DNA from: Peptococcaceae bacterium UBA5755
GTDB taxonomy: Bacteria; Bacillota; Dehalobacteriia; UBA4068; UBA5755
DNA length: 64,000 nt
Direction: 5' to 3'
Assembly (NCBI GenBank): GCA_002419005.1
Contig: DIFF01000012.1
Location: forward strand, 500,241 to 564,240
Shown here: positions 12,006-46,989 of the stretch, piece by piece
Layout of the letters: each line of letters starts with the position of its first letter
Position numbering within the stretch: the first letter of the stretch is position 1
Notes under the pieces: model-generated
Told to the model about the DNA's origin: nothing
The model's database searches: none
What the model saw: only the letters and a program-made list of their open reading frames with translations
Position numbers and translations under genes: made by a program

Positions 12006-13988
12006 GTGGGCCAATTTCAACTTAAAAGCAACTATGTGCTGATGGGTGACCAACCAACCGCTGTAAATGAGCTTGTAAAAAGCATTTTGGCCGGCAACCG
12101 TTACCAAACTTTGCTGGGAGTAACCGGCAGCGGCAAAACCTTTACTATGGCCAATGTGATTGAAAAACTGCAAAGACCCACTCTGGTGATCGCCCACAAC
12201 AAAACCTTAGCTGCTCAGCTGTGTGCGGAATTTAAGGAGTTTTTCCCCAATAATGCCGTAGAATATTTTGTGAGCTATTATGATTATTATCAGCCAGAGG
12301 CTTATATAGCTCATACCGATACTTATATTGCTAAAGATGCTTCCATAAACCAGGAGATTGAAAAACTGCGGCACTCGGCCACTGCTGCTCTGTTTGAAAG
12401 ACGGGATGTGATAATCGTAGCCAGTGTTTCTGCCATTTACGGTTTGGGCGACCCTAGTGAATATTTGGGACTTTCTGTTTCTTTACGGCCTGGACAAGAG
12501 ATGAAAAGAGAAATCCTTTTGCGACGTTTGGTTGATATTCAATATAACCGCAATGAGATGGATTTTGCCCGCGGTTCTTTTCGGGCCAAGGGCGATGTGG
12601 TGGAGATAATCCCTGCCGGCGAAAGTGAACAAGCCCTGCGGGTGGAATTTTTTGGTGATGAGATTGAGCGAATTGCCGAGATCGATACTCTTACCGGCCA
12701 GGTTTTGGGCTGGCAAAAGCATGTGTTGATCTTTCCGGCAAGCCATTATGTGACGGCTCCGGAAAAGCTGGCTTTGGCCATGGCCTCTATTGAAGCAGAG
12801 CTGGCGGAAGAGTTAACCAAACTGCGGGCAAACGGCAAACTTTTGGAAGCGCAAAGGCTAGAGCAACGCACAAAATTTGACTTGGAAATGATGGCCGAGG
12901 TTGGCTATTGCCAGGGCATTGAAAATTATTCTCGGCATCTTTTAGGGCAACCGGCCGGTTCGTCCCCCTTTACTCTTTTGGATTATTTTCCGGAAGATTA
13001 TTTGATTATGATAGATGAATCTCACGCTACTTTGCCCCAGCTTGGCGCCATGTACAAGGGCGACCGGGCCAGAAAAGAGAATTTGGTGGCTTATGGCTTT
13101 CGCCTGCCCTCAGCCATTGACAATCGGCCCCTGAAATTTGCCGAATTTGAAGAAAAAGCTAAACAACTGCTATATGTTTCTGCTACACCCGGCCCGTATG
13201 AGCTGGAGCACTCTAACTGTATTGTTGAACAGGTAGTACGGCCTACCGGGCTTTTAGACCCCCCCATAGAGGTGCGACCAAGCAAAAACCAAATTGATGA
13301 TTTGATTGGCGAGATAAACCAAACCGTAGCAAAGGGTTTTAGGGTTTTGATTACTACCCTTACCAAACGGATGGCAGAAGATCTGACCACCTATTTGAAT
13401 CAGGCCGGCATTAAAGTGCGTTACCTTCACTCGGAAGTAAAAACGCTGGAAAGGATGGCCATTGTACGGGACTTGCGGCTGGGCGAATTTGATGTGCTGG
13501 TTGGCATAAATTTGCTACGCGAAGGTCTAGACCTGCCAGAGGTGGCCTTGGTGGCTATTTTAGATGCGGATAAGGAAGGGTTTTTGCGGTCGGAACGCTC
13601 ACTGATTCAGACTATTGGCCGAGCCGCCAGAAATGTTGCCGGACGGGTGATTATGTATGGAGATCATATCACCGAATCTATGCGGCGAGCCATCCAAGAA
13701 ACCAACCGCCGTCGCACTAAACAAGATATCTACAACCAGAAGCACAACATAACGCCTCAAACTATTCAAAAAGAAGTGCGGGATGTAATTGCAGCAGTGC
13801 TGCCAACAGACAAAAAAACTGGCCCTGACCTGCAGCCGGGGAAAATGAGCAAAAAAGCAAAAGAGCAGCTGTTGCGGTCTTTGGCAAAAGAAATGCAGCA
13901 GGCGGCTAAGCGGCTGGATTTTGAAGAAGCAGCCGAACTGCGGGATTTGATTATGGAAATTCGTCTGGCTGGGGTAAAACAAGGTTAG
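12006..13988 (+). CDS. uvrB: excinuclease ABC subunit B
   Basis: The ORF is collinear over its whole length with E. coli UvrB, matching [19 protein letters not shown], the helicase motifs and the C-terminal UVR domain [10 protein letters not shown]. It starts at GTG. Confidence 0.95.
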
Positions 13989-14035
13989 ATAAATTTAGAT
14001 TTGCTGCTAATTTTAAATAAATCAGGAGATTGTTT

Positions 14036-16954
14036 ATGGCTAATGATAAGTTGATTATCGAAGGAGCAAGACAGCACAATTTAAAAAATATTAATGTGAG
14101 TATTCCCCGCGACAAGCTGGTGGTGCTAACTGGTATTTCTGGCAGCGGCAAAAGTTCCCTAGCCTTTGATACCATTTATGCGGAGGGTCAAAGGCGTTAT
14201 GTGGAATCGCTTTCTGCTTATGCCCGGCAGTTTTTGGGGCAGATGGACAAACCCGACGTGGACCATATTGAGGGACTTTCCCCGGCAATTTCTATTGACC
14301 AAAAAACCACCAACAAAAACCCCCGTTCCACGGTAGGGACCATAACCGAGATTTACGATTATTTGCGGCTTTTGTTTGCGAGGGTTGGGCACCCTCATTG
14401 CCCGGTGTGCGGTGAGCCCATCAGCAGCCAAAGTGTAGACCAAATGATTGATGCTCTTTTGCAATATGCCGAGGGGACACGGTTACAGATTTTGGCCCCC
14501 ATTGTGCGGGGCCGCAAAGGTGAATATGTGAAGCTTTTGGCGGATATTAAAAGCCAGGGCTTTTTGCGCATACGTTTGGATGGTGAAATGCGGGACTTGG
14601 ACGAAGAAATTAGTTTGGACAAGCAAAAAAAACACACCATAGAAATTGTGGTTGACAGGTTGGTTATTAGAGAAGGAATTGAAAGCCGGCTGGCCGATTC
14701 TTTGGAGATTGCCTTGGAACATGCCAATGGGCTGGTTAAGGTTTTGGTGCAAGAACCTGCCGCAAACTCAGAACCGCAAGACAATGCCTTGGACGAGCCG
14801 CAAAAAGATAAAAAACAAGAAACCAAGGAGATTTCCTTTAACCAAAATTTTGCCTGCGCCCAATGCGGCATTAGCCTAGAAGAGATAACCCCCCGCTTGT
14901 TTTCTTTTAACAGCCCTTACGGGGCCTGCCCCACCTGCGGTGGTTTAGGTTACACCATGCACATTGATGAAAAACTTTTGATGCCCCACCCCGAAAAAAG
15001 CATAAAAGAAGGCGGCATTATGCAGTTTAATGATGGGGCGCAGGGTTGGTATTACCGCTTTATTGTAGCTTTGGCGGAACGCTATGGTTTTTCTTTGGAA
15101 GTACCGGTAGAGGATTTACCCCGCTGGGCCTTGGATTATATTTTTTACGGCAGCGGTACAGACAAGCTTACTGTTTCCTACGAAAACCAAAGCGGAGACC
15201 AACGAACGATTACCGAAAGCTGGGAGGGTCTGGCCAACAATTATGCCCGCCGCTACAAAGAAACAGCCTCTCCTTGGGTTAGAAATGAGCTGGAGAAACT
15301 GATGGCCATAAACCTTTGCCCAGATTGCCACGGAGCCCGGCTAAAGCCCATTAGCCTTGGGGTAACAATTGCCGATAAAAACATTCATGAGCTGAGCCAG
15401 CTCTCCATTGAAGATCTGCGGAATTTTATAGATACTTTACAACTTTCTGAAAGGGAAACTTTGATTGCCGAACAAATATTAAAACAAATAAATGAACGGC
15501 TGAGTTTCCTTGTTAATGTTGGGTTAGATTATTTAGCCTTGGGCCGCACGGCCGCCTCATTATCCGGCGGCGAAGCTCAACGTATTCGCCTGGCTACCCA
15601 AATTGGCTCACAGCTTACAGGGGTTTTGTATATTTTAGATGAACCGAGTATTGGCCTTCACCAAAAAGACAATGCTCAGCTGATTAACACCTTGCTGCGG
15701 CTTAAGGATTTGGGCAACACGGTGCTGGTGGTGGAGCATGACGAAAATACCATTTTAGCGGCAGATTTTATTGTAGATATTGGCCCCGGTGCCGGAGCCA
15801 AAGGTGGCCACCTGGTGGTGGCCGGCTCAGTAGAAGATGTGAAGGCCTGCAAAAAATCCATCACCGGTCAATATTTGAACGGCAGTAAAAAAATCCTTCT
15901 ACCGCCAAACCGCAGAATAGGTAACGGCGAATATTTGCGGGTTTTTGGGGCCGCTGCCAACAATCTGCAAGACATAGATGTAGCTATTCCGCTTGGTACT
16001 TTTACCTGTGTTACCGGGGTTTCCGGCAGCGGCAAAAGCTCTTTGGTAAATCATGTCATTTACACCAGTTTAGCCCACTTTTTAAACGGAAGCCAGGTAA
16101 AACCGGGCCCCTGCAAAAAGATAGAAGGCCTGGAAAATTTGGAGAAAGTAATAGCTATTGACCAAAGCCCCATTGGCCGCACCCCCCGCTCTAACCCCGC
16201 AACCTACACCGGGGTATTTAACGATATTAGGGAGCTTTTTGCCATGACCCCCGATGCCAAAGCCAAAGGATACAAATCTGGCCGTTTTAGCTTTAATGTT
16301 CGGGGCGGCCGTTGTGAGGCTTGCCAGGGCGACGGGATTATTAAAATTGAAATGCATTTCCTTGCTGATGTATATGTGCCATGCGAAGTATGTCATGGTA
16401 AAAGGTATAACCGGGAAACACTGGAAATTCGCTATAAAGGTAAAAACATTGCCGATGTGTTGGACATGACGGTAGATGAAGCAGTAGAATTTTTTGCCAA
16501 TATCCCAAAAATTTACAGCAAGCTTTTGGTATTGCAGGATGTAGGCTTGGGTTATGTAAAACTTGGCCAATCCGCCACCACTCTTTCCGGCGGTGAGGCG
16601 CAAAGGGTAAAATTGGCTTCTGAGTTGGCCCGCCGCAGCCACGGCAAAACTTTTTACATTTTGGATGAACCAACCACCGGTCTGCACACGGCAGATATTC
16701 ACAAGCTTTTGCATGTATTTGATAGACTTGTGGAAGCCGGCAACACACTTTTGGTTATTGAGCACAATTTGGACGTGATAAAATCAGCCGACTACATTAT
16801 TGACCTGGGGCCAGACGGCGGGAGAAGAGGCGGCCGGGTAATTTGCTGTGGCACCCCAGAGGAGATCGCCGCCCAAAATGTTGGTTACACCAGCCCATTT
16901 GTGCAACAAGTTTTACAAAAATATGGGCAAGTACCCCTTTTTACCCAGAGATAA
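14036..16954 (+). CDS. uvrA: excinuclease ABC subunit A
   Basis: There are two ABC ATPase modules ([12 protein letters not shown] and [11 protein letters not shown]), zinc-finger Cys clusters and LSGGEAQR signatures. An AGGAG RBS precedes ATG 14036. Confidence 0.95.
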
Positions 16955-16966
16955 GGGGGTGAAAAA

Positions 16967-18874
16967 ATGAGTCAAAACTGGCAAGAAAAATTGCAGGAAC
17001 AGCTAGAAAAGCTGCCGGATGAGCCAGGCGTTTATTTGATGTATGACGAGGCGGACGCAATAATTTATGTGGGGAAAGCCAGCTCTTTAAAGCAACGGGT
17101 CCGCTCTTACTTTGTGAGGGGCAACAAAAACACCCCAAAGACTGCCGCCCTGGTCGAAAAGGTGCGGCGGTTGGAAACGGTTGTTTTAAACTCTCCTGTG
17201 GAAGCACTTGTTTTGGAAAGCAACCTAATAAAAAAGCACCATCCCCGCTACAATGTGCGGTTGCGGGACGACAAGCAATACCCTTACCTTATGCTTACTA
17301 TGGCGGAGGATTTTCCCCGTTTGTTGGTAGTAAGACAACCAAGGGCCGATGCTAATTTGTATTTTGGCCCTTATGTTTCTGCCCAAAACATGCACGAGGT
17401 ACAGAATATTATTAGGCAAATTTGGCCTTTGCGAAGCTGCAGCAACAGCCAGTTTGCCAGTTCTAAACGCCCCTGCCTTAATCATGATATTGGGCATTGT
17501 TTGGCCCCTTGCACAGGCGGCATTGACAAAGCTGCTTACAAAGAAATGGCAGAAGAAGTGAGCCTGTTTTTGGAGGGCCGCACCAAAGAGATTGGCCAAA
17601 ACCTAGAAAAAAAGATGAAAGAAGCTTCTGCTGCCTGGCATTTTGAAGAGGCAGCCCGGTACCGGGATCAGTTGGCAGCAGTAAAGTTTGTTCAGCAAAA
17701 AAACCCCATAAACAAAATTAATGCAGGGGATTATGATATAATTGCTCTGGCAAGCCACCAAAAAGATGCCTTGGCCCAGGTTTTTTTTGTGCGGCAGGGT
17801 AAACTGCTGGGCAAAGAACATCTCTTTTTGGTTAATGAGACGGAAGTAAAAGAAGCTGATTTAATGGGTGCTTTTTTGCCACAATATTATGCCCGTCGCC
17901 AACATATTCCTCCTCTTATTTGCCTTTCAGCTCTGCCGGAAAACACTGAAACCATGGCTCTTTTGCTGCAGCAAATGCGTGGCGGCAGCGTAAAGATAAC
18001 TTTGCCACAAAAAGGAACCAAAAAATCCCTTTTGAAACTGGCCATAAAAAATGCCTGCCTGCTTTTATCCCAAAACCTTGAGGCAAATGAAGAACAGCAA
18101 AAAAGGAGGGCTGCCACCCTTTTGGAATTGGTAGAAATTCTTAACTTGCCAAAAACGCCCTATCGCATCGAATGTTTTGATAACAGCCATATTCAAGGAA
18201 CCAACACTGTTTCTGCCATGGTAGTTTTTGAAGGCGGGCAAGCCAAAAAAAGTGATTATCGTCACTTTCGTCTTAAAGGGGACCACCATGGTGATGATTA
18301 TGCCGCCATGCGAGAAGTTTTGGCCCGGCGTTTTGCTAAAGCCGTGGAAAAATCAGGACCAGATGAGAAAACCCCCGCCCAAACCGAGGCAAAAAACCCA
18401 AAGAAGCCAGCCTGGCAAGAGCTGCCTGATCTTCTTTTGGTGGATGGCGGCAAAGGGCAAGTGAATGTGGCGGTGGAAGTTTTGACCATGCTGGATCTTT
18501 TGGCGGCGGTACCCATTGCCGGCCTGGCCGAAACGGAAGAGTATATATATTTGCCGGGCGAAAGGAACCCTATTGTTTTACCGCAAGAAAGCCCGGCTCT
18601 GCAGCTTTTGCAACAGATAAGGGATGAGGCCCACCGCTTTGCCCTGAGCTATCACCAAAAACTACGCGGCAAAAACATGGCTGCATCCAGCTTGGCGGAG
18701 ATCTCCGGCATTGGTAAAAAACGCCAACAGGCCCTTTGGCAACATTTTGGCTCAAAAGAAAAAATGGCTAAAGCCAGCATTGAAGAACTTTCTTTGCTGC
18801 CTGGCATGAACAAAAAAGCAGCCACAGCAGTATATGAAAAACTCCATGATATACACGACAAAACAAAGGAATGA
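16967..18874 (+). CDS. uvrC: excinuclease ABC subunit C
   Basis: The N-terminal GIY-YIG domain is PGVYLMYDEADAIIYVGKA. A UVR domain and a C-terminal HhH follow. The RBS is GGGGGTG. Confidence 0.95.
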   Translation: MSQNWQEKLQEQLEKLPDEPGVYLMYDEADAIIYVGKASSLKQRVRSYFVRGNKNTPKTAALVEKVRRLETVVLNSPVEALVLESNLIKKHHPRYNVRLRDDKQYPYLMLTMAEDFPRLLVVRQPRADANLYFGPYVSAQNMHEVQNIIRQIWPLRSCSNSQFASSKRPCLNHDIGHCLAPCTGGIDKAAYKEMAEEVSLFLEGRTKEIGQNLEKKMKEASAAWHFEEAARYRDQLAAVKFVQQKNPINKINAGDYDIIALASHQKDALAQVFFVRQGKLLGKEHLFLVNETEVKEADLMGAFLPQYYARRQHIPPLICLSALPENTETMALLLQQMRGGSVKITLPQKGTKKSLLKLAIKNACLLLSQNLEANEEQQKRRAATLLELVEILNLPKTPYRIECFDNSHIQGTNTVSAMVVFEGGQAKKSDYRHFRLKGDHHGDDYAAMREVLARRFAKAVEKSGPDEKTPAQTEAKNPKKPAWQELPDLLLVDGGKGQVNVAVEVLTMLDLLAAVPIAGLAETEEYIYLPGERNPIVLPQESPALQLLQQIRDEAHRFALSYHQKLRGKNMAASSLAEISGIGKKRQQALWQHFGSKEKMAKASIEELSLLPGMNKKAATAVYEKLHDIHDKTKE

Positions 18875-18879
18875 AGAAA

Positions 18880-19683
18880 ATGACAGTAAAATTAGTAGCA
18901 ACCGATTTGGATGGCACTATGCTACAAGATAACAAAGTTGATCCAAAAACAAAGGCAATTGTGCAGAAAATGATTAAAAAAGGCGTAGAACTGGTTATTT
19001 CTACCGGACGCATGCATTGTGCTACCCAAATGACCGTGCGTCAGTTGGGTATTAACCCATATATAGTAAGCTACAACGGGGCCATGGTGCATCAGGGACT
19101 TTATGGCAAAGAATTACAAAACATTACTATGGACAAAGATATAGCCAAGAAACTTATTGCAATTGGCATGGAAAATGGTGTTGTAATGCATGTTTATATA
19201 AATGATGTGCTTTATGTGCAAGAGATGACCAATTGGACGGCAAATTATATGAAGCTGTGTGCCGCCCCAACCCGGCTTTTGGAGGATTTAAAGGAAGCAA
19301 TAGACATTTTTGGCGATCCCACTAAGGTACTTTTTATTTCTACCCCGCAAAATTGCGCCAATATGCAAAAAATGCTCCGCCAGAAATTTGCCGGCGAAAT
19401 ATATATTACCAGCTCCGCCCCATATTTTGTAGAGGCCATTAACCCAAATGTACATAAGGGCAAAGGCGTAAAAATTGTTGCTGATCGGCTGGGGATAAAG
19501 CAATCGGAAATTTTGGTGATTGGCGATAATTATAATGATATGGACCTTTTTGAGGCCGGTGATATTAAAATTGCCATGGGTGATGCGGTGGATGCTTTGA
19601 AAGAATCTGCCACCTGGGTTACTGACACTGTAACAAATGATGGCTGGTATAAAGCAATAAGAAAATTTGTTTTTGAAGAATAA
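18880..19683 (+). CDS. Cof-type HAD-IIB family hydrolase
   Basis: The motifs are VATDLDGT and GDNYNDMDLF. The track ATG at 18871 overlaps the uvrC stop, but ATG 18880 has better RBS spacing. Confidence 0.8.
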   Translation: MTVKLVATDLDGTMLQDNKVDPKTKAIVQKMIKKGVELVISTGRMHCATQMTVRQLGINPYIVSYNGAMVHQGLYGKELQNITMDKDIAKKLIAIGMENGVVMHVYINDVLYVQEMTNWTANYMKLCAAPTRLLEDLKEAIDIFGDPTKVLFISTPQNCANMQKMLRQKFAGEIYITSSAPYFVEAINPNVHKGKGVKIVADRLGIKQSEILVIGDNYNDMDLFEAGDIKIAMGDAVDALKESATWVTDTVTNDGWYKAIRKFVFEE

Positions 19684-19716: not shown

Positions 19717-21087
19717 ATGGCAAAAGCAAAATTTGTTTATGTTTGCCAAGAATGTGGTCACACAAGTGTGAAATGGTATGGCCGCTGCCCAAGCTGCGAG
19801 ACCTGGAACAGCTTGGTTATGGAGCCTCTGGAAAGCAGCCCTGAAAAAAAAGTTGGGCAAAATTCTGCCGGGGCTTTGCCCCTACCCATAAACCAGGTTT
19901 CTTTAAGCCAGGTAGACCGCTTGAAGCTTGGCATAAGCGAGCTGGACGGGGTGCTTGGCGGCGGCCTAGTGCCTGGCTCTTTGGTTTTGCTGGGCGGCGA
20001 ACCCGGCATTGGCAAAAGCACTATTTTGCTGCAGGTGAGCCTGGCTTTAGCCAACAACCACGGACCTGTTCTTTATGTTTCCGGTGAGGAATCGGCTCCT
20101 CAGGTGCGACTAAGAGCTGAAAGACTGGGCACCCTTTCGCCAAATTTGTGGCTTTTGGCAGAAACCGACTTGGAAGCTATTTTGACCAAGGCCAAAGAAA
20201 AGGATTTGAAACTGCTGATTTTGGATTCCATTCAGTCCGTTTATCTGCCAGAATTGACTGCAGCCCCAGGCAGCGTTTCTCAGGTGCGGCAGGGCTGTGC
20301 CGCCCTAATGCAATATGCCAAGGAGACTGGTGTGGCGGTTATTTTGGTAGGACATGTAACCAAAGAGGGGAGCCTGGCTGGGCCACGGGTTTTGGAACAT
20401 ATGGTAGACACGGTACTTTATTTTGAAGGACAAAAAAACAATTCTTTTCGGCTTTTGCGGGCGGCAAAGAACCGTTTTGGCTCCACTAACGAAATTGGTA
20501 TTTTTGAGATGCTGGATACCGGGCTTTCGCCCCTAACCGACCCCTCTTTGCTTTTTTTGAGCCAAAGAAACCAAGAAGTGCCCGGTTCTGTTGTGTGCTG
20601 CGTTATGCAGGGTACAAGGCCTGTTTTGGTAGAGGTGCAAGCACTAACCTCCCCTACCACTTTTGGCAACTCCCGCAGGCTTGCAAGCGGCTTGGATTAT
20701 AACCGTTTGCTTTTGATTGTGGCGGTCTTAGAAAAGAAACTGGGGCTTAAGCTTGGCACCCAAGATATTTATGTGAATGTGGCAGGCGGTCTGAAGGTGG
20801 AAGACCCCGCAGCGGATTTGGCAGTGGCAGCAGCCATTGTTTCTAGCTACAAAGATAGAACGGTACCGGCAAACACACTGGCTATGGGGGAAATTGGCCT
20901 TACGGGAGAAGTTAGGCACATTAGCCAACTGGATAGACGCCTAAAAGAAGCTGAAAAGTTTGCTTTTAAAGAAGCGGTGGTGCCACCGGATGCTAAAACC
21001 ACCCAAAAAAGAGCTCCCGATGATCTGATCACTTGGCCCAGCCAATATGTTGATAAAGCTTTGGGGCTTTTGGGACTCTTGCTGTAA
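19717..21087 (+). CDS. radA: DNA repair protein RadA/Sms
   Basis: It has an N-terminal zinc finger CQECGHTSVKWYGRCPSC, Walker A GEPGIGKST and a Lon-like C-terminal domain. Confidence 0.95.
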   Translation: MAKAKFVYVCQECGHTSVKWYGRCPSCETWNSLVMEPLESSPEKKVGQNSAGALPLPINQVSLSQVDRLKLGISELDGVLGGGLVPGSLVLLGGEPGIGKSTILLQVSLALANNHGPVLYVSGEESAPQVRLRAERLGTLSPNLWLLAETDLEAILTKAKEKDLKLLILDSIQSVYLPELTAAPGSVSQVRQGCAALMQYAKETGVAVILVGHVTKEGSLAGPRVLEHMVDTVLYFEGQKNNSFRLLRAAKNRFGSTNEIGIFEMLDTGLSPLTDPSLLFLSQRNQEVPGSVVCCVMQGTRPVLVEVQALTSPTTFGNSRRLASGLDYNRLLLIVAVLEKKLGLKLGTQDIYVNVAGGLKVEDPAADLAVAAAIVSSYKDRTVPANTLAMGEIGLTGEVRHISQLDRRLKEAEKFAFKEAVVPPDAKTTQKRAPDDLITWPSQYVDKALGLLGLLL

Positions 21088-21142: not shown

Positions 21143-21679
21143 TTAATAGTTATCAGCAGCCAGCTCATAATAAGCCTGGGGATGGGAGCAAGCAGGACAG
21201 CGTGTAGGAGCTTCTTTACCGGTATGTATATAACCACAGTTGCGGCAACGCCATTCTCTTTCTTCGGTTCTTTTAAAGAGTTTGTCTTCCCTTAAATTGG
21301 CTAAAAGAGCTGCATAACGTTTTTCGTGCTCGGCTTCCACCTCGCCAACTTCTTTAAAAAGATCGGCAATTTTGTTAAAACCTTCGGCACGGGCTACTTC
21401 TTCAAATTCTTTATACATATTAGTCCATTCATAGTTTTCGCCACCCATGGCATCCAGCAGGTTGGCTTCAGTTTTAGGCATGCCATCATGAAGCTGTTTA
21501 AACCACATTTTAGCATGCTCTTTTTCATTGTCAGCAGTCTCCAAAAAGATACCTGCTATTTGTTCAAAACCTTCTTTTTTGGCCTGGCTTGCATAAAAAG
21601 TGTACTTGTTGCGGGCTTGGCTTTCACCGGCAAATGCAGCCTGCAAATTTGCTTCAGTACGGCTTCCTTTTAAATCCAT
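21143..21679 (-). CDS. rbr: rubrerythrin
   Basis: A ferritin-like diiron domain (E..EH motifs) is followed by a C-terminal rubredoxin-like CRNCGY...CPACSHP. Confidence 0.9.
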
Positions 21680-22967: not shown

Positions 22968-22995
22968 ATTGGCTGGATAATTAAAGATATAATTT

Positions 22996-23026
22996 TGGGG
23001 GCTCGGCGATCGCCGAGCCCCTTTTT
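22996..23026. terminator. bidirectional rho-independent terminator
   Basis: GGGGGCTCGGCGATCGCCGAGCCCC is followed by TTTTTT. Confidence 0.8.
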
Positions 23027-23029
23027 TAT

Positions 23030-24955
23030 TTATAGTTTGTTTTGTTTTTGGATAAAAGCTACAAACTCTTCAGCAGGCATGGGGTTGGCATAGAAAAACC
23101 CTTGGACATAATCTGCTTCCAGCTTGATGACTATTCCTGCCTGGTTGTTGTTCTCTACACCTTCCACCACTATCACTAAACCAAGCCGCCTAAACATTCT
23201 TAAAGTATCTTCAAAAACAATAGAGATATTTTCTTTGCCTATTTCCGGAACCAGAAGACTGCGATCCAGCTTTACGGCAAAAAATGGTAAATTTACTACC
23301 TGAGCAATGTTGGCATAGCCTGTACCAAAATCATCCAAAGCAAAACGAAAACCTTTTTCTATTAGGTCATTCATACATTTAGCAAGAACATTATAAGAGT
23401 CTATAGCAGCAGTTTCTGTGACCTCAAAAATAATGCCGGATGGGTCTACCCCATGTTTTTCTACAATACTCCTCAACCGCTCTGGCAAATGCTGGTACAA
23501 AAAATCGGCTGCTGAAAGATTAATTTGAAGACTTTTTATGCCAAGCTCTTTTTGAGGCTGATATTTTTTTATGAACTGACAGGCTAAATTTATTACTGTT
23601 TCGTCTATCCGCAGGATTAGCCCTTTTTCTTCTGCAATTGGAATGAACTCGGCGGGAGAAATGTCACCCATAACCGGATGAGAAAATCTGAGTAAAGCCT
23701 CCGCAGAAACAATTCGTTTTTCTTTTACCGAATAAATTGGTTGAAAATAAAGCGAATAACCTTTTTGGTTTTCCAATGCTTCCTTTAGGGCAGTTTCTAT
23801 TGCAACGCGCCTTTGAATATTTAACATAAGATGGCTTTTTATCTCTTCTGTGGAACCTAGACCACCACTACCTAAATCGAAAAAGGACATATCTATAAGA
23901 TTTATCACATCTTCCGGCTTTTTAAAATAATCTGTTCTGGGAAAATGACGCACAGTAGCTGAAAGCATGAGCTCCATACCATTCATTTCCCAGGGAATTT
24001 TAAAACCTTCTTCTATTTTAGAAAGCATTTTTTGGTAAGTTGCTTGGTCATAAGTTATGATGACAAAACGTGTGCCAACCATGCGAAAAACCCAGGTGTT
24101 CTCCTTTTCGGAAAACAAAAAATCGCCCACTTTTATCATAACTTGGTTGCCAATGACCATACCAAAAAGGTTGTTGATGCGCCGCATGCCGCCGATATCG
24201 ATGGCAATAAGCTGAAACTGTTTTTTTTCTTCCAGCTTGTCCTTAAGAAAAATTAGCATAGCCTCATAATTAAAAACACCGGTCATAACATCCAACATGT
24301 CTTTGGGGTTTTGTATGGTAAAGTACATTGTAGTGATGGCAAGAGCAATCGCCACACCGGTAAGCAAGTATCTCGGATTATAAAATTGAAACATTATAGC
24401 TATTGCTATAATTATAATAAAAATAAAAATGGTTTTATACTGATTTTCCTGAAGTTTTCTTCTGTATATGTTGATGAAAATAAAAATAAAAGACATGTAA
24501 AAAGCTACAATATAATAAAGATACTTAAACCATGGCCCATGGATATAGTTCATGGATGCGTCAATATAGAAGAAAAGATTAGTTAGGGGGTTTAAAAGCA
24601 ACATGATCTCAAAAACTATGCCCGGCAAAAGCAAAAGCACAATAATAACAGCATTTTTTGCCTTAAAAATCCCCGCCATTAGCATTGCATATATCATAGC
24701 AAGGACGGAGAAAATGAGCTGCAAAGAATAAAAAGCGGCGTTTGTGACCAAATTGACCCAAATAGGCAAAAACGCCGCTTTTTCAATAGTAAAGGCACTA
24801 ATAATATCCAAGGCCAGATCAGCAATCGCACATACCAAAATAAACCCAAATAGCTTATTTGCCATATTAGGGAAAGGTCTTTTTTCAAAAAATTGCTGTG
24901 TTAATATTAAAAGAAAGACCAGGGCGCATATTTCAAATTCTACAACATATTGCAT
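23030..24955 (-). CDS. membrane sensor with a degenerate GGDEF domain and a c-di-GMP phosphodiesterase (EAL) domain
   Basis: 641 aa. The N-terminus has about 8 TM helices. The GGDEF-like domain has a GTRF degenerate motif. The EAL domain carries EALLRF...DDFGTGY. Confidence 0.85.
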   Translation of the reverse strand: MQYVVEFEICALVFLLILTQQFFEKRPFPNMANKLFGFILVCAIADLALDIISAFTIEKAAFLPIWVNLVTNAAFYSLQLIFSVLAMIYAMLMAGIFKAKNAVIIVLLLLPGIVFEIMLLLNPLTNLFFYIDASMNYIHGPWFKYLYYIVAFYMSFIFIFINIYRRKLQENQYKTIFIFIIIIAIAIMFQFYNPRYLLTGVAIALAITTMYFTIQNPKDMLDVMTGVFNYEAMLIFLKDKLEEKKQFQLIAIDIGGMRRINNLFGMVIGNQVMIKVGDFLFSEKENTWVFRMVGTRFVIITYDQATYQKMLSKIEEGFKIPWEMNGMELMLSATVRHFPRTDYFKKPEDVINLIDMSFFDLGSGGLGSTEEIKSHLMLNIQRRVAIETALKEALENQKGYSLYFQPIYSVKEKRIVSAEALLRFSHPVMGDISPAEFIPIAEEKGLILRIDETVINLACQFIKKYQPQKELGIKSLQINLSAADFLYQHLPERLRSIVEKHGVDPSGIIFEVTETAAIDSYNVLAKCMNDLIEKGFRFALDDFGTGYANIAQVVNLPFFAVKLDRSLLVPEIGKENISIVFEDTLRMFRRLGLVIVVEGVENNNQAGIVIKLEADYVQGFFYANPMPAEEFVAFIQKQNKL

Positions 24956-24967
24956 ATCTTCTCCAAT

Positions 24968-25015
24968 ATACTATGTTTATGGTATGGTATGGTATGGTAT
25001 GGTATGGTATGGTAT
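24968..25015. repeat. pentanucleotide tandem repeat (TATGG)9, also readable as (GGTAT)9, in the promoter region of the EAL gene
   Basis: Nine or more perfect 5-bp units lie immediately upstream (20-65 nt) of the EAL gene start codon on the minus strand. A TATAAT hexamer abuts the repeat. Confidence 0.9.
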
Positions 25016-25095
25016 AATATAGTTATTAATCTAACATTATATTACATATTTTCCCATAAAATGACAAGCTTTTTTAAAAAAAATTATTAATAATA

Positions 25096-25136
25096 AAAGG
25101 AAGCACCCTTTTTTGCAGTTTGCTTCCTTTTTTATT
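25096..25136. terminator. terminator downstream of the ubiX / small-protein operon
   Basis: The AGGAAGCA...TGCTTCCT hairpin is flanked by T-runs. Confidence 0.5.
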
Positions 25137-25186
25137 TTCTTTAATATTAATTCTGCGACTTGCTACCAAATTTAAAAAGACCTCTT

Positions 25187-25552
25187 CTATAAATCGGCAA
25201 TTATATCATTCAGCAATCTTTCTGCTAAGGACTTAACTAAAACCATCTGATCTTCCGAAATGTTGTTTACATGGATACCGCAAGTTACGACAATTTTTTT
25301 ATTTAAGAATGCAGCAAGTTTTTCGGCAAACAAATTACCAATTTTGTCATCCATGTGGCCCACAAAGTTGTAGGTACTGGTGGTGGCACTGATTTTTGCC
25401 GGATCACTTAAGCTAGGACGTGGCACAGCAATGCTGACACTGCCGATATGGGGCGCATCACCGCCCGAAACAACCAAGCAAAGCTCATCCCCCACAACCA
25501 AAACTTGTGCCTTAAGAGCAAGGCCATTTTCAGTTTTAGTATAGCATTTCAT
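25187..25552 (-). CDS. small conserved protein encoded 3' of ubiX (possible UbiD/UbiX accessory or prFMN-handling protein)
   Basis: 121 aa, with a 4-nt gap to the ubiX stop and on the same strand. It has no Cys zinc-ribbon of the BsdD/VdcD type. The GDAPHIGS motif is present. Confidence 0.45.
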   Translation of the reverse strand: MKCYTKTENGLALKAQVLVVGDELCLVVSGGDAPHIGSVSIAVPRPSLSDPAKISATTSTYNFVGHMDDKIGNLFAEKLAAFLNKKIVVTCGIHVNNISEDQMVLVKSLAERLLNDIIADL

Positions 25553-25556
25553 ATTA

Positions 25557-26135
25557 TCAGTCCCTTGGTTTGATTTGTTCTATCATATCTTCCCATCTTT
25601 GGATCTTCATGTTTAAATTAAACTGATCTAAAACCCGCGCGATGGTATTGTTGATTATGTCCGCTAAATTTTGCGGTTTAGAATAAAAAGCCGGTACCGG
25701 CGGCATGACAACTGCACCAAGCTGGGAAGCTTTTAGCATATTTTCCAGGTAAACAGTGCTCAAAGGCGATTCTCTGGTTAAAAGAACCAACTTTCTTTTT
25801 TCTTTTAAGGCTACGCTTGCTGCCCTAATAATCAAATCATTATCAAAACCATTGGTAATTCCCGACAAGGTTTTCATGCTGCAGGGTGCCACTATCATTC
25901 CATCATTTTTATAAGAACCACTGGAAATAACAGCTGCCATATTATCTTCGTCATAGCAAAAATCGGCCATGGCTTTTATTTCTTCAAGAGAATATCTTGT
26001 TTCATTCGCTATGGTATATTCGCCCCATTTACTAATTATTAAATGGGTTTCGACTCCCAAATTTTTTAATTCTTCTAATAATCTAATGCCATAGATGGCC
26101 CCGGAAGCTCCGGTAATTCCCACAATTATTTTCAA
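25557..26135 (-). CDS. ubiX: flavin prenyltransferase UbiX (prFMN synthase)
   Basis: MKIIVGITGASGAIYGIRLLE...the ORF is collinear with UbiX/Pad1 family flavoproteins. Confidence 0.9.
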   Translation of the reverse strand: MKIIVGITGASGAIYGIRLLEELKNLGVETHLIISKWGEYTIANETRYSLEEIKAMADFCYDEDNMAAVISSGSYKNDGMIVAPCSMKTLSGITNGFDNDLIIRAASVALKEKRKLVLLTRESPLSTVYLENMLKASQLGAVVMPPVPAFYSKPQNLADIINNTIARVLDQFNLNMKIQRWEDMIEQIKPRD

Positions 26136-26261
26136 TTTTTCCCCTCCCGCTATTTGGTGGAAGATGATTTTGTTTAAAAAGCCATACCACTATGAGCGGC
26201 ATTAAATGCCGCTCATAGCAAGTATTTACTATAGGTAATTTTTCCTAATTGTTAAGATAAA

Positions 26262-27263
26262 TTATTTCAGCAGACCTTTTTCTTTCAGATATTTGATAGC
26301 GCCATCATGTAAAGGCATGGAAGTTTGATCCCAAGCTGCCAATGCTTCAGGAGTAAACGCAGCAGTGCCAGCGTGAACGGCTTTCCAGTCTTCGATATGG
26401 GAGTACATAACATCCAAAATTTCATAAGCATCAGCCTCGGAAACAAAAGTATTAGAAACGATAGTGGTTGCTACGCCCAACACAGTGGTGTCGGTATCAA
26501 CTTTGTTGTAAGTGCCAGCCGGAATAGTACTAGTAACGAAGAAAGGCATGGTCTCAATAACTTTTGCAACTGCTTCATCGGTAACGTTGAGCAGCTTGAT
26601 GTTTTGAGACAAGGCAACCTCAGATACGCCGGAAGCGGGGAAAGCAGCAAAGTATACGCCAACGTCAATGGTGCCATCCAAGAGAGCAGTGGTGGTTTCA
26701 GCCATGCTCAGATAGTACATGTCAACATCAGCCACATCTATGCCGTAAGCTGCCAAAACACCAGGAACTGCCAGGGTGGAGATGGAGGAACCAGGAGAAC
26801 CAGCACCAAGTCTTTTGCCTTTAACCTGTTCGATGGAATCAATGCCAGAGTCAGCTCTGGTTACCCAGTGCAGATAAGAATAAGAGCCAACCATCAGGAT
26901 ACGCAGATTGGTTTGAGCACCAGCTTCTACAAATTGCTCTTCACCATGATAAGCATATTTAGCTATATCAGCAAGAACGAAAGACATTTGGCAGGTGTTG
27001 GCATTAACCAATTTAGCATTTTCTACAGAACCAGTGGTTGCTTCTACAGAAGCAGTAGTGTTTTCCATGTTTTCTTCCAAAATTTTGCCCAAGCCCCCAG
27101 CTTGAATGTAGCTAGTACCACCTTGTTGGGAACCGCCGATTGCCAACCGCAGGGTTTCAGTTCTGCCGGCTGGTTCTTCCTCTTTAGTGCAACCAAATGC
27201 AAACAACATTACAAAACATAACATAATAGCACAGAATACCATAAGCTTAGATTTTTTTACCAT
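26262..27263 (-). CDS. TRAP transporter TAXI-family substrate-binding lipoprotein
   Basis: The lipobox is LFAFGC. TAXI signatures are present: LAIGGSQQGGTSY and TGSVENAKLV. Confidence 0.85.
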   Translation of the reverse strand: MVKKSKLMVFCAIMLCFVMLFAFGCTKEEEPAGRTETLRLAIGGSQQGGTSYIQAGGLGKILEENMENTTASVEATTGSVENAKLVNANTCQMSFVLADIAKYAYHGEEQFVEAGAQTNLRILMVGSYSYLHWVTRADSGIDSIEQVKGKRLGAGSPGSSISTLAVPGVLAAYGIDVADVDMYYLSMAETTTALLDGTIDVGVYFAAFPASGVSEVALSQNIKLLNVTDEAVAKVIETMPFFVTSTIPAGTYNKVDTDTTVLGVATTIVSNTFVSEADAYEILDVMYSHIEDWKAVHAGTAAFTPEALAAWDQTSMPLHDGAIKYLKEKGLLK

Positions 27264-27365
27264 TGTTTTCCCTCCTAAATTAATTTAATTTTTTGGATCT
27301 CCACAAATTGGTTTTCCGCTAACCTTTTGCCTCCTTCCCCTCTAAAAAAAATATTGCAATGATTC

Positions 27366-29342
27366 TTATGCCTGTAGATCCGGTTCGGACACCAAACTAG
27401 AACCTTGTTTGTTCTTTTTAGCTATTCGCTTACGAAGGATAAAGATTACTACCAGCACAACTATGCCAATAATGTCGGTATAAAAACCCGGAATAACCAT
27501 CAGCAAGCTACCGGCAAAAATAACAATTCTTATAATAATATTCAATTTGCCATGTAAATATCCTTCGAGGGCTGTTACCATGAAGTACACGCCAACTATT
27601 GCGGTTAGGCAAGACCAAATTACTTGAATTGCAGAACCTTGCATTAAGAGGACCGGGTTATAAACAAAGATGTAGGGAACCAACAAACCGGGAAGAGCCA
27701 TCCTAAATGCTGTATAACCTGTTTTTGTTGGGTCAGAATCGGCAATTGCCGCCGCCGCATAGGCACCCACCGCAACTGGAGGAGTGATGTTTGCATATAC
27801 TGCAAAGTAAAGGATAAAAAGATGAGCAGCTAAAGGATAAACGCCCATTTGAATGAGAGCTGGAGCAACCAAAACAGCCAGTACAATATATGCCGCGGTG
27901 GTGGTTACGCCCATGCCCAAAAGGATACAGCAGAGCATGGTTAAAATAAGCAGAAGCAGCAGATTGCCGCCGGAAAGAGTAATCAAAAAAGAGGAAAGTT
28001 TGAGGCCCAGGCCTGTAAGGGAAAAAACACCAACAATTACACCAGCACAAGCACAGGCCATAGCTACATCAACAAGACCCCTGGCCCCTGCTACCAAAAC
28101 CATTAGGTATTTTTTTACACTGAGTCTGGTAGTTTTACGAAATAAAGAAATAATAAAGCATGCTATTGCGGCATATAAACCGGCTTTGATAGCACTAGTT
28201 TTAAAAACGCCCAGCATCAGTAATAAAAGAATAATGGGAATCAAAAATGCCCCCCCATCTTTTAAGACAACAAGAGAAGATTCCAAATTTTTTCTGCTGG
28301 TACCCAGCAAACCAAGTTTTTGAGCACGGATGTCAGCTGTTATAAAAAGTGCCGTGTAGTACAAAATAGCCGGGATGACTGCTGCCATAGCAACAGACCA
28401 ATAGGAGATGCCTAGCATTTCGCCGATGATGAAGGCTGCAGCACCCATAACAGGCGGCATAATCATGCCGCCTGCGGAAGCAACTGCTTCAACAGCCCCG
28501 GCAAATTGAGGGGTAAAACCTTCTCTTTTCATCATAGGAATGGTAAGAGAACCTGCGGTTGCCACGTTGGCAATAACACTACCAGAAATGGTGCCGAACA
28601 AACCGCTTACAACAACACCAATTTTGGCAGAGGAACCTCTCACATTGCCCAAAAGAGAATTGGCAATGCGAAAAATAAAGTCACCGCCGCCGGTTCTTTG
28701 CAGGATTACGCCGAAGATAACGAAAACTGCAACATAGGTTGCGGATACGCCCAAAGGAGTACCGAAAATACCTTCGGTAGAAAGATACATGGCGTTGACA
28801 ATACGAGAAAGACTATAGCCACCGTGCCCCACGCGCCCAGGAATAAATTGGCCAAGAAAAGCATAAAGCAAGAATATCCCGGCAATGAGCGGCATGGGAA
28901 AACCCATGACCCTTCTCGTGCCTTCAAGTACTGCAAGAGTCATTATGCAACCAAATACCACGTCTATAGTATATAGGGTACCAGCTCGAAAGGCTATGTC
29001 AAAATAGTTGGTTGCAAGATAAATACAGGCTGATACGGCTGCAGCAAAGAAGATCACGTTAAAGATCATTCTTGCTATGTTTAACGGTGTTCCTGCTTTA
29101 TCACCTTTTAATTTAAAAGGATTAAGCAAAAACACCAATGCAATCGCAAAACCCAGGTGGATAGACCTTTGTATTACAGCCGGCAACGGCACAGTAGCTG
29201 CCGTATAAAGTTGAAATACGGAAAACCCAAAAGCAATTACGATTATGGCATATTTAATAAATTTGCTAAGCTGTGTTTCCTGTTTTTTAGCCTCAAGAAC
29301 TGCACTGCCGTCTTTGTTTACTACAGTTTCTTTTTTTGTCAT
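27366..29342 (-). CDS. TRAP transporter fused permease (TAXI-associated DctQM-like)
   Basis: 658 aa with about 16 TM helices, typical of TAXI-TRAP fused permeases. Confidence 0.85.
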   Translation of the reverse strand: MTKKETVVNKDGSAVLEAKKQETQLSKFIKYAIIVIAFGFSVFQLYTAATVPLPAVIQRSIHLGFAIALVFLLNPFKLKGDKAGTPLNIARMIFNVIFFAAAVSACIYLATNYFDIAFRAGTLYTIDVVFGCIMTLAVLEGTRRVMGFPMPLIAGIFLLYAFLGQFIPGRVGHGGYSLSRIVNAMYLSTEGIFGTPLGVSATYVAVFVIFGVILQRTGGGDFIFRIANSLLGNVRGSSAKIGVVVSGLFGTISGSVIANVATAGSLTIPMMKREGFTPQFAGAVEAVASAGGMIMPPVMGAAAFIIGEMLGISYWSVAMAAVIPAILYYTALFITADIRAQKLGLLGTSRKNLESSLVVLKDGGAFLIPIILLLLMLGVFKTSAIKAGLYAAIACFIISLFRKTTRLSVKKYLMVLVAGARGLVDVAMACACAGVIVGVFSLTGLGLKLSSFLITLSGGNLLLLLILTMLCCILLGMGVTTTAAYIVLAVLVAPALIQMGVYPLAAHLFILYFAVYANITPPVAVGAYAAAAIADSDPTKTGYTAFRMALPGLLVPYIFVYNPVLLMQGSAIQVIWSCLTAIVGVYFMVTALEGYLHGKLNIIIRIVIFAGSLLMVIPGFYTDIIGIVVLVVIFILRKRIAKKNKQGSSLVSEPDLQA

Positions 29343-29366
29343 TTTTACACTCCTTTCCCTTAAATT

Positions 29367-30764
29367 TTATAAATTCAGCATTTTGCTCACTTTGTCGCTA
29401 ACCTCTTGAGGAACTTTAACAACCTTTGGAAATTCGGTATGGAAAGGTTTTGTAGCATCGATGATGACCCTGGTGGTCAACTTGCCTTTGCCGGCTCTGT
29501 TGTCTTCAGCATAAGAGCTGGGATCAAGTTGGGCACCAAAGGTGTAGGGGATCATAGAGATGTCGATATCACCTTGTACGCGAGTTGCCACTGCCCAAAG
29601 CACTTGTTCATTATCATAGATGTTGATGTCTTCATCAAAAACAAAAACGTGCTTCAAGTCATAGTTCACACCAAGAGCAGCTAAAGCTGCAAACTTGCCA
29701 TAACCTTCTACGGTTTTTTTGATGGACATGTAAAGATGATAGAAGGACGCACCAGAAGGCGGCAGATGGAGCGCTTTGAGAGTAGGAATAATCTCTTTAA
29801 CTTTTTTGTACATATGGGCTTCACGGCCTAAAACGCCGGCCAAGGTATGCTCTCTGAAGCTTGGGCGAATGTCATGATAGATGGGGTCTTTTCTCATAGT
29901 GATGGCAGTTACATGCAAAACAGCAACTTCTTTTTCAGGGCCATAATAGCCAGCATATTCGCCAAAAGGACCATCTTGAGTCATTTCACCAGGATCCAAA
30001 TAACCTTCGATAACAATCTCGGCATAAGCGGGAACATTGATATTAACGGTTTCAGCTTTAACAACCTGCAAAGGCTCGTTTAAAAGACCGCCCATGGTCT
30101 CAAGTTCATTATGTTCATCCAATTTACCACGCGAAGAAGAACCAAGGACTACTGCGGGGTGGTGGCCGATAAAGATGGCAACTTCCATACGTTTTTTCAG
30201 CTCGCAATGACGTCTATAAATGTATGCGGCGTGGGAAGCAGGGTTAACCATCCAGCTTAATGTATTTTTATTTTTAACTTCCATGCGATAGATACCAACA
30301 TTGGGCACACCGCTGTCGGGGTCAATGCAAATCAGGTTGCCGCTGGAAATGTATCTGCCGGAGTCTAGCTCATTATGAATACTGATAGGAACTTGATCTA
30401 AATCAATTTTGTCACCAGTAAAAATTTGTGCTTTCACAGGGGCATCTGCTTTGGCAATTTCTTGCATGGGCAGAGGATTAGATTCACGTTTAATGTAGGT
30501 TTGCAGAATTTCTTCATGCTCATTGCCGTCAACATCCAAAGCATGACCCAAAAGTTCATAGCTTGCAAAAAGGCTGGAAACCATTGGCATGGGAGATTTT
30601 TCTACGTTTTTATAGAAAACTACGGGGTATTTACCTTTAGCAGCTAAAAGCTCTTGGACAGCACCTATCTCATAGTCGCGATCCAATTTTTCTTCTACTT
30701 CAAAATATTTTTCCGGATATTGGGTTTTGATTTTGTTTAAAAAAGTGCGCAGATCTTTTTGCAT
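29367..30764 (-). CDS. UbiD-family (prFMN-dependent) reversible decarboxylase
   Basis: 465 aa. UbiD-family motifs are present from the N-terminus through the C-terminal region. The first gene of the operon. Confidence 0.9.
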   Translation of the reverse strand: MQKDLRTFLNKIKTQYPEKYFEVEEKLDRDYEIGAVQELLAAKGKYPVVFYKNVEKSPMPMVSSLFASYELLGHALDVDGNEHEEILQTYIKRESNPLPMQEIAKADAPVKAQIFTGDKIDLDQVPISIHNELDSGRYISSGNLICIDPDSGVPNVGIYRMEVKNKNTLSWMVNPASHAAYIYRRHCELKKRMEVAIFIGHHPAVVLGSSSRGKLDEHNELETMGGLLNEPLQVVKAETVNINVPAYAEIVIEGYLDPGEMTQDGPFGEYAGYYGPEKEVAVLHVTAITMRKDPIYHDIRPSFREHTLAGVLGREAHMYKKVKEIIPTLKALHLPPSGASFYHLYMSIKKTVEGYGKFAALAALGVNYDLKHVFVFDEDINIYDNEQVLWAVATRVQGDIDISMIPYTFGAQLDPSSYAEDNRAGKGKLTTRVIIDATKPFHTEFPKVVKVPQEVSDKVSKMLNL

Positions 30765-46803: not shown

Positions 46804-46989
46804 ATGATAGCCTTCATAGTCGACAATTTAGCGACACTTATTATAAGCGTGGCATTACTGGCTGTTGTCGTACAGATTTCAGTAAATCTGATCAAAAAGA
46901 AAAAAAGCGGTAAAGCTGTAGGCTGCAGCTACAGCTACAGCTACGGCTGCAACACTTGCCCAAGTGCTTCCCTATGCCACAAGCATTAA
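46804..46989 (+). CDS. FeoB-associated Cys-rich membrane peptide
   Basis: A single TM helix is followed by GCSYSYSYGCNTCPSASLCHKH. It lies immediately 3' of feoB. Confidence 0.75.
   Translation: MIAFIVDNLATLIISVALLAVVVQISVNLIKKKKSGKAVGCSYSYSYGCNTCPSASLCHKH

Follow-up and report, generated by a model that had tools for sequence, protein, structure and literature searches.

A strain-variable (CCATA)7 microsatellite in the predicted 5′ leader of a probable c-di-GMP phosphodiesterase gene

Gene content and organization of the locus

The window, that is, the whole stretch of 64 kb of DNA that was analyzed, contains a gene for an EAL-domain protein on the minus strand. It is preceded by an intergenic region with a pentanucleotide tandem repeat and, further upstream, by an operon on the same strand. 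The GC content varies from 33% to 47% along the window. The features of the locus are listed below in the order of transcription, with coordinates referring to positions in the window.

29367..30764, minus strand: UbiD-family decarboxylase (profile search)
27366..29342, minus strand: fused TRAP permease, DctQM (profile search)
26262..27263, minus strand: TAXI-type solute-binding protein (profile search)
25557..26135, minus strand: UbiX prenyl-FMN synthase (profile search)
25187..25552, minus strand: LpdD/PAC_bac-like small subunit, last gene of the operon (Pfam PF21758, E-value 1.1e-31)
25089..25136, minus strand: intrinsic-terminator-like hairpin with a U-run, ending the ubiD/TRAP/ubiX/lpdD operon (RNA folding)
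25036..25067, minus strand: best promoter-like site, TTGTCA-17-TAATAT (consensus scan, predicted)
24978..25015, minus strand: microsatellite with a pentanucleotide unit, reading (CCATA)7 along the gene strand, (TATGG)7 along the plus strand
24961..24964, minus strand: Shine-Dalgarno sequence GGAG, in uuGGAGaag, 6-9 nt before the ATG (read from the sequence)
23030..24955, minus strand: 641-aa polytopic membrane protein, GGDEF (degenerate) and EAL domains (Pfam, motifs)

The operon at 25187..30764 (minus strand) looks like one for an aromatic-acid decarboxylase of the gallate or protocatechuate type together with a dedicated transporter, and this is consistent with a hydrocarbon-degrading community. 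The hairpin at its end has a predicted RNA minimum free energy (MFE) of -18.8 kcal/mol (z -5.2), was equaled in 0 of 200 shuffles, and is followed directly by UUUUAUUAUU. Because this terminator closes the upstream operon, the EAL gene needs a promoter of its own, roughly within 25090..24956.

The EAL domain of the 641-aa protein was recognized by Pfam with an E-value of 2.3e-59 and with the profile covered at full length, and all of the EAL motifs were found: EAL (as EALLR), NLS, EVTE, DDFGTG, KLD, EGVE, and QGF. The match to the GGDEF domain is weak (E-value 5.4e-09, 36.5 bits). VGTRF occupies the position of the GGDEF motif, in place of the GG(D/E)EF that marks an active diguanylate cyclase, and judged from this motif the GGDEF domain is degenerate. 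About six to seven hydrophobic segments lie within residues 1-214. The NCBIfam models gave only partial matches to phosphodiesterase equivalogs, all of them under the respective cut-offs. With its complete set of catalytic EAL motifs, the protein is a probable c-di-GMP phosphodiesterase. An earlier reading made from the sequence alone (hereafter, the sequence-only reading) had described the gene as coding for a membrane protein of the c-di-GMP-degrading type in which an EAL domain accompanies a degenerate GGDEF domain, and the Pfam matches, the motifs, and the hydrophobic segments agree with that description.

Two further hairpins were recognized at the EAL gene. One lies inside the gene, at 24730..24783 on the minus strand (codons about 58-76). 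It consists of AAAAAGCGGCGUUU...AAACGCCGCUUUUU and is followed by UUUUUAUUC; its folding energy is -24.4 kcal/mol (z -4.0), equaled in 0 of 200 shuffles. Its arms encode KAAF and NAAF by reverse-complementary codons, and the sister strain described below has this sequence unchanged. Terminator-like in appearance and situated about 170-225 nt into the ORF, it is either a candidate attenuator or terminator, or a coincidence. The other is the GC-rich hairpin GGGGCTCGGCGATCGCCGAGCCCC, which has A/T runs on both sides and lies in the 62-bp spacer (22968..23029) between the convergent EAL and ychF genes. It resembles a bidirectional terminator. This spacer differs by 6 substitutions in 62 positions (9.7%) between the two strains, versus about 1% in the genes around it.

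Elsewhere in the window, uvrB, uvrA, and uvrC are consecutive at 12006..18874 on the plus strand, and radA (19717..21087) follows after one ORF (18871..19683). Rubrerythrin (21143..21679) and then ychF are found beyond radA. A 730-aa ORF at 7860..10052 on the minus strand has no NCBIfam match at E ≤ 0.001.

The pentanucleotide tract

The repeat was delimited by TRF at 24978..25015, with a period of 5, 7.6 copies, 100% matches, and a score of 76. Counting with a regular expression gave exactly seven perfect TATGG units, which occupy 24978..25012 (35 bp), and a partial unit ATA extends the tract to 25015 (38 bp). The minus-strand sequence of the region is tattata(CCATA)7aacatagtatattGGAGaagatATG. 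The tract spans -60 to -23 relative to the ATG of the EAL gene (24955). The sequence-only reading had reported a perfect (TATGG)9 repeat of more than 45 bp, placed 20-65 bp before the start of the gene. The perfect period-5 repeat is present where it was reported and its placement was about right, while the count falls to seven units.

Period-5 runs of at least three units occurred 0.065 times per window in 200 shuffles, and runs of at least four units did not occur in these shuffles. The (CCATA)7 tract is real and non-random, far above chance expectation. It is also solitary; the SSR count revealed no second SSR of this class in the 64 kb, and the remaining SSRs of the window are AT x5, TA x5, T9, and one hexamer x3. 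The second-longest SSR of the window is a hexanucleotide repeat, GCTACA/CAGCTA, at 46922..46948, about 140 nt 3′ of feoB (4.5 copies at 90%, three of them perfect). No other CCATA array was found in the 64 kb window; three matches outside the locus carry three mismatches each, with about 1.7 such matches expected. Because the window has no further CCATA array, the tract does not represent a regulon motif.

In Haemophilus influenzae, potential phase variability is assumed for pentanucleotide tracts from 3-4 units upward, and a high switching rate is known for (GACGA)4 (PMC2651432). The seven uninterrupted units found here compare with a three-unit threshold for pentanucleotides in that species (PMC2651432).

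Length polymorphism between two strains

A search of 5.8 billion proteins with the EAL protein as a query returned a single close relative, P0001, with 98% identity; the next match was at 52%. The protein cluster holds two full-length alleles, P0124 (the protein of the window) and P0001. The contig encoding P0001 (ENA ERZ27315034, 547 kb, locus L016) shows synteny to the window, and the DNA identity is 98.57% across 7.9 kb. At the tract, the sister allele reads tattata ACATA CCATA aacatag, that is, two units (one of them imperfect) versus seven. The alignment of the 231-bp intergenic region between the two strains contains a 25-bp in-register gap in the tract and one substitution, and nothing else, while the flanking genes differ by 0.35-1.6%.

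This alignment directly shows that five whole units were gained or lost since the two strains of one species diverged. Gain or loss of units had been anticipated in the sequence-only reading, which proposed counting repeats across strains as a check, and the exact in-register indel bears this out for the two strains compared. A whole-unit length difference between strains is also a property by which contingency loci are recognized. Two small plus-strand ORFs that run over the tract (24950..25090 and 24744..25022) were dismissed as spurious, and the 25-bp difference breaks their frame in the sister strain.

The EAL gene is intact in both strains. It shows 16 synonymous and 11 non-synonymous differences, with a dN/dS of 0.18, a value similar to or below that of its neighbors, and it is under purifying selection in both strains. 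No more close relatives were found in a scan of one genome per species, in which the relatives had at most 29% identity, or in the JGI metagenome contigs; the comparison of alleles consists of two strains from all of the collections searched. FeoB (44626..46782) and RadA belong to single-member 90% clusters, and the copies of the sister strain thus fall outside those clusters.

The upstream regions of five orthologues with 45-52% identity contain no SSR and show no synteny with the window. The tract is therefore no conserved regulatory element of this gene family.

The sample of the window is a hydrocarbon metagenome (SRR636559/JGI 3300000568), and the organism is uncultured. The nearest named homologues of its UvrB belong to Clostridia, Clostridiales, and Bacillota MAGs and to genera such as Dehalobacterium and Zhaonella, with about 70% identity (about 70-75% for the closest matches), a placement no finer than uncultured Clostridia/Bacillota. 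Three independent assemblies of the sample, namely the one containing the window, the ENA k127 assembly, and the JGI assembly, have seven units each, as counted in their consensus sequences. Tandem repeats can be miscounted by short-read assemblers, and a Logan contig built with k=31 stops within the tract, so the possibility was considered that the tract or the strain difference is an artefact of repeat collapse or expansion. Against this stand the agreement of the three assemblies and the length of the tract, which at 38 bp does not reach that of a read, nor the k=127 and k=141 of the long contigs that cross it. The sister allele moreover carries the distinguishing variant unit ACATA, which simple collapse would not yield. 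The end of the Logan contig was also considered as a sign of heterogeneity in unit number and was rejected as such, because a de Bruijn graph at k=31 must break at a longer period-5 repeat. An assembly artefact is scarcely credible.

Position of the promoter

The best promoter-like site in the intergenic region consists of a -35 hexamer TTGTCA (25067..25062), a 17-nt spacer, and a -10 hexamer TAATAT (25044..25039), the latter overlapped by a perfect TATAAT (25041..25036). It matches the consensus at 9 of 12 positions in the allele of the window and likewise in the sister allele. This is the sole good sigma-A-like site between the terminator and the gene, and in both alleles it lies wholly upstream of the tract. 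Consensus promoter matches as a class are not in excess in this AT-rich stretch, with 4 observed versus 5.2 expected from shuffles.

The 14-nt block ATATGTAATATAAT that contains the -10 region (25049..25036) recurs upstream of the closest orthologue, which is 52% identical (locus L023; Logan SRR28268099, 691..785). There it lies 40 nt before the ATG, among neighboring genes different from those of the window. Such a recurrence was obtained in 0 of 500 dinucleotide shuffles. The upstream regions of the four remaining orthologues have nothing in common with the window beyond chance. The exact 14-mer at L023 hints that this phosphodiesterase family has either a conserved -10 region or a site for a regulator.

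The upstream terminator, the promoter-like site, and the block shared with L023 together favor a predicted transcription start near 25029-25032. With that start, the tract would most likely lie in the 5′ UTR, between about +15 and +55 of the transcript.

The sequence-only reading had instead placed the tract in the promoter itself, over the -35 region and upstream of it, so that changes in unit number would shift the promoter spacing or phasing and switch transcription ON or OFF. With a very short leader, a promoter would indeed fall at the distance of the tract from the ATG, 23-60 bp. Two -10-like hexamers, TAGTAT (-18..-13) and TATATT (-15..-10), lie directly 3′ of the tract, and each 5-bp step would rotate the DNA further upstream by about one half-turn of the helix, which could matter with an upstream activator. 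But with either hexamer as the -10 element, the transcription start would fall inside the GGAG at -9..-6 or beyond it. The would-be -35 hexamers for them, including those in the repeat, have at most 3 of 6 matches to TTGACA in either allele, as judged by eye, and the consensus scan found no promoter-like hexamer pair that uses or spans the tract in the 7-unit or the 2-unit allele. The better site lies upstream (25067..25039) and its -10 block is conserved in an orthologue. Its predicted -35/-10 spacing is the same with seven and with two units, contrary to the proposed change in spacing. In addition, a 25-bp change within a core promoter should ruin the promoter of one strain, whereas purifying selection acts on the gene in each of the two. 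Among the models considered, promoter spacing is least consistent with this anatomy, and we regard it as improbable.

Structure of the leader and other types of switch

The 115-nt leader has a predicted MFE of -9.5 kcal/mol (z +0.9), which 163 of 200 shuffles reached, and most of the repeat is left unpaired. A small hairpin, identical in both alleles, is the sole element that forms consistently; its loop contains the Shine-Dalgarno sequence and its stem the AUG. In modelled leaders with 0-20 units, the Shine-Dalgarno sequence is at least 0.89 unpaired, the pairing of the AUG is constant, and the MFE reaches a plateau at -12.6 kcal/mol. An RNA structural switch was rejected, since the folded repeat pairs with neither the Shine-Dalgarno sequence nor the AUG at any unit number from 0 to 20. 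Folding of the leader did not reveal a long stable hairpin between the repeat RNA and a complementary region, of the type known for hmw1A. Predictions of secondary structure are blind to RNA-binding proteins, mRNA decay, and effects on transcription elongation.

At the DNA level, folding indicated no hairpin in the tract on either strand, and slippage would thus be a simple out-of-register realignment.

Known cis-regulatory RNAs, such as a c-di-GMP riboswitch, were searched for with Rfam and rejected at both thresholds used. At the gathering score, the window gave tRNA only; a permissive scan of 24850..25300 had a best E-value of 0.11, with matches far below gathering that fall on the terminator hairpin.

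An imperfect inverted repeat (24890..24916/25135..25161, 20 of 27 matches) surrounds the promoter, the tract, and the first EAL codons. It is built on the palindrome TTAATATTAA, and one of its arms lies within the ORF. An invertible switch like that of Clostridioides difficile PdcB was rejected here, as the inverted repeat is within chance (11 of 60 shuffles equal it) and the two strains do not differ in orientation.

Comparison with known repeat-controlled systems

Phase variation by SSRs and the contingency loci of Haemophilus, Neisseria, Campylobacter, and Moraxella have been reviewed (PMC11868660, PMC2651432). The tract resembles such loci as a perfect short repeat beside a gene with whole-unit differences between strains, and its pentanucleotide unit, lying in non-coding DNA, is free of frame constraints. 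It differs in being one SSR in 64 kb instead of one of many, and in its host, an uncultured free-living anaerobe from a hydrocarbon metagenome, whereas the bacteria with contingency loci are host-adapted pathogens. Unlike those loci, the tract lies neither in an ORF nor between a predicted -35 and -10 hexamer.

The closest parallels in position are transcribed repeats. The (ATCTTTC)n repeat of H. influenzae hmw1A/2A is located in the 5′ UTR and grades expression (PMC12721329). It acts via a long hairpin that is cut by RNase III, and it requires at least 10-11 repeats (PMC12721329). The (AGAT)n repeat of Moraxella catarrhalis uspA2 is likewise transcribed and changes expression (Attia & Hansen 2006, as cited in PMC4679880). 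The tract shares with both its predicted position, 3′ of the promoter and 5′ of the ribosome-binding site, and a strain-dependent copy number. It differs from hmw in that the CCAUA repeat is predicted to be unstructured and to pair with nothing.

Intergenic heptamer repeats, TAACTGA, are known from marine Beggiatoaceae, where about 169 loci per genome share the unit and a post-transcriptional role was proposed (PMC4679880). The likeness lies in short direct repeats in the 5′ regions of genes of environmental non-pathogens. The number of loci in Beggiatoaceae implies a dedicated system, in contrast to the single locus found here, with no other CCATA array in 64 kb.

With respect to the regulated gene, the nearest counterpart is C. 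difficile PdcB, a phase-variable EAL phosphodiesterase that is controlled by site-specific inversion of a promoter-bearing element with flanking inverted repeats (PMC9286219). The two cases have in common an EAL phosphodiesterase gene in a member of Clostridia and the idea of stochastic c-di-GMP heterogeneity. They differ in the variable element, which is an SSR at the present locus, and the inverted repeat flanking it is within chance.

SSRs in promoter spacers form another class. The TA repeats of H. influenzae hif and the poly-G/C tracts of Neisseria meningitidis porA and opc lie between the -35 and -10 hexamers. Like the tract, they are intergenic repeats in which a change of length could alter transcription, but the present tract is 3′ of the best -10 hexamer and is bracketed by no hexamer pair. 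Promoter-spacer SSRs are also touched on in PMC3639595.

Origin and possible effects of the tract

The explanation that we consider fairly probable is a recent microsatellite, made by slippage, in a transcribed leader, whose effect on the gene would be neutral or at most mildly graded. Replication slippage would have created and resized the strain-specific (CCATA)7 tract. Situated between the gene's own promoter, which we infer to be the TTGTCA-17-TAATAT/TATAAT site upstream, and the ribosome-binding site, the tract would be transcribed as a part of the 5′ leader of the phosphodiesterase mRNA. Changes in unit number would move the length of the leader in 5-nt steps, to about 73 nt in the strain of the window and about 48 nt in the sister strain, and would leave the -35/-10 spacing constant. 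The C/A-rich repeat RNA, away from the hairpin with the Shine-Dalgarno sequence and AUG, would then have no effect or would cause a mild graded change in expression. This outcome appears the likeliest because the repeat RNA is predicted to be unstructured and to make no contact with that hairpin. The expectation of a neutral or mild effect is a prior and not a result, because transcribed upstream SSRs alter expression elsewhere (hmw1A, uspA2). By analogy with other bacteria, a pentanucleotide tract of seven units may be long enough for hypermutability, and the locus may be heterogeneous in populations. ON/OFF phase variation through the tract would be less likely.

Two functional alternatives to a near-neutral leader microsatellite were weighed. 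The tract could be a rheostat in the 5′ UTR, or a contingency locus, in which frequent slippage of CCAUA units tunes the stability or translation of the phosphodiesterase mRNA and produces subpopulations that differ in c-di-GMP. The polymorphism in exact units between strains and the predicted 5′ UTR position are in line with such a role, as is a tract length well over that of the pentanucleotide that switches in H. influenzae. Transcribed SSRs that modulate expression are known from hmw (PMC12721329) and, as cited in PMC4679880, from the AGAT repeats of uspA2; PdcB, in another member of Clostridia, exemplifies a c-di-GMP phosphodiesterase whose phase variation is adaptive (PMC9286219). On the other side, the hmw mechanism needs a long hairpin, while this repeat has no structure and the predicted accessibility of the ribosome-binding site is flat from 0 to 20 units. 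With a lone SSR in the 64 kb window, nothing points to contingency loci as a genome-wide strategy. Neither the sister strain nor any of the five orthologues has the tract, and the unit count is the same in the three assemblies of the sample. We hold tuning of this kind to be unlikely. The fuller proposition, a true contingency locus at which frequent slippage in the leader tunes or switches the phosphodiesterase and thereby generates sessile and motile c-di-GMP subpopulations in a free-living Clostridia-like anaerobe, is quite doubtful.

The tract could also be an array of binding sites, either half-turn repeats read on DNA or an RNA array for a TRAP- or HutP-like multimer, with the number of units setting the occupancy. 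A single-stranded RNA with a 5-nt period does resemble the arrays that are read by ring-shaped RNA-binding proteins. These proteins read periodic triplet arrays, and the (G/U)AG motif that TRAP and HutP need is not contained in the tract. In the sister strain, where the gene is the same and the flanks are identical, the site consists of one perfect and one imperfect unit, and the 64 kb window holds no second CCATA array. The perfect identity of the units points to recent slippage, not to an array maintained by selection. A role as a binding array is very improbable.

Implications

The anatomy of the locus is corrected to seven units instead of nine, and to a predicted leader instead of a promoter. 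On the present evidence, the tract is a candidate slippage locus and not evidence of a switch. What the two near-identical strains display is a clean, recent, in-register expansion or contraction of a microsatellite, which is useful as a strain marker.

If the tract modulates expression, the stochastic control of c-di-GMP would widen from DNA inversion, as in PdcB, to simple-sequence slippage, and contingency loci would widen from host-adapted pathogens to an environmental anaerobe. If it is a true contingency locus, it would represent the first case of a c-di-GMP enzyme controlled by an SSR, the control of PdcB being driven by inversion. It would also be a rare case of SSR-based bet-hedging beyond host-adapted pathogens, acting through an unstructured C/A-rich leader, unlike the hairpin and RNase III route of hmw.
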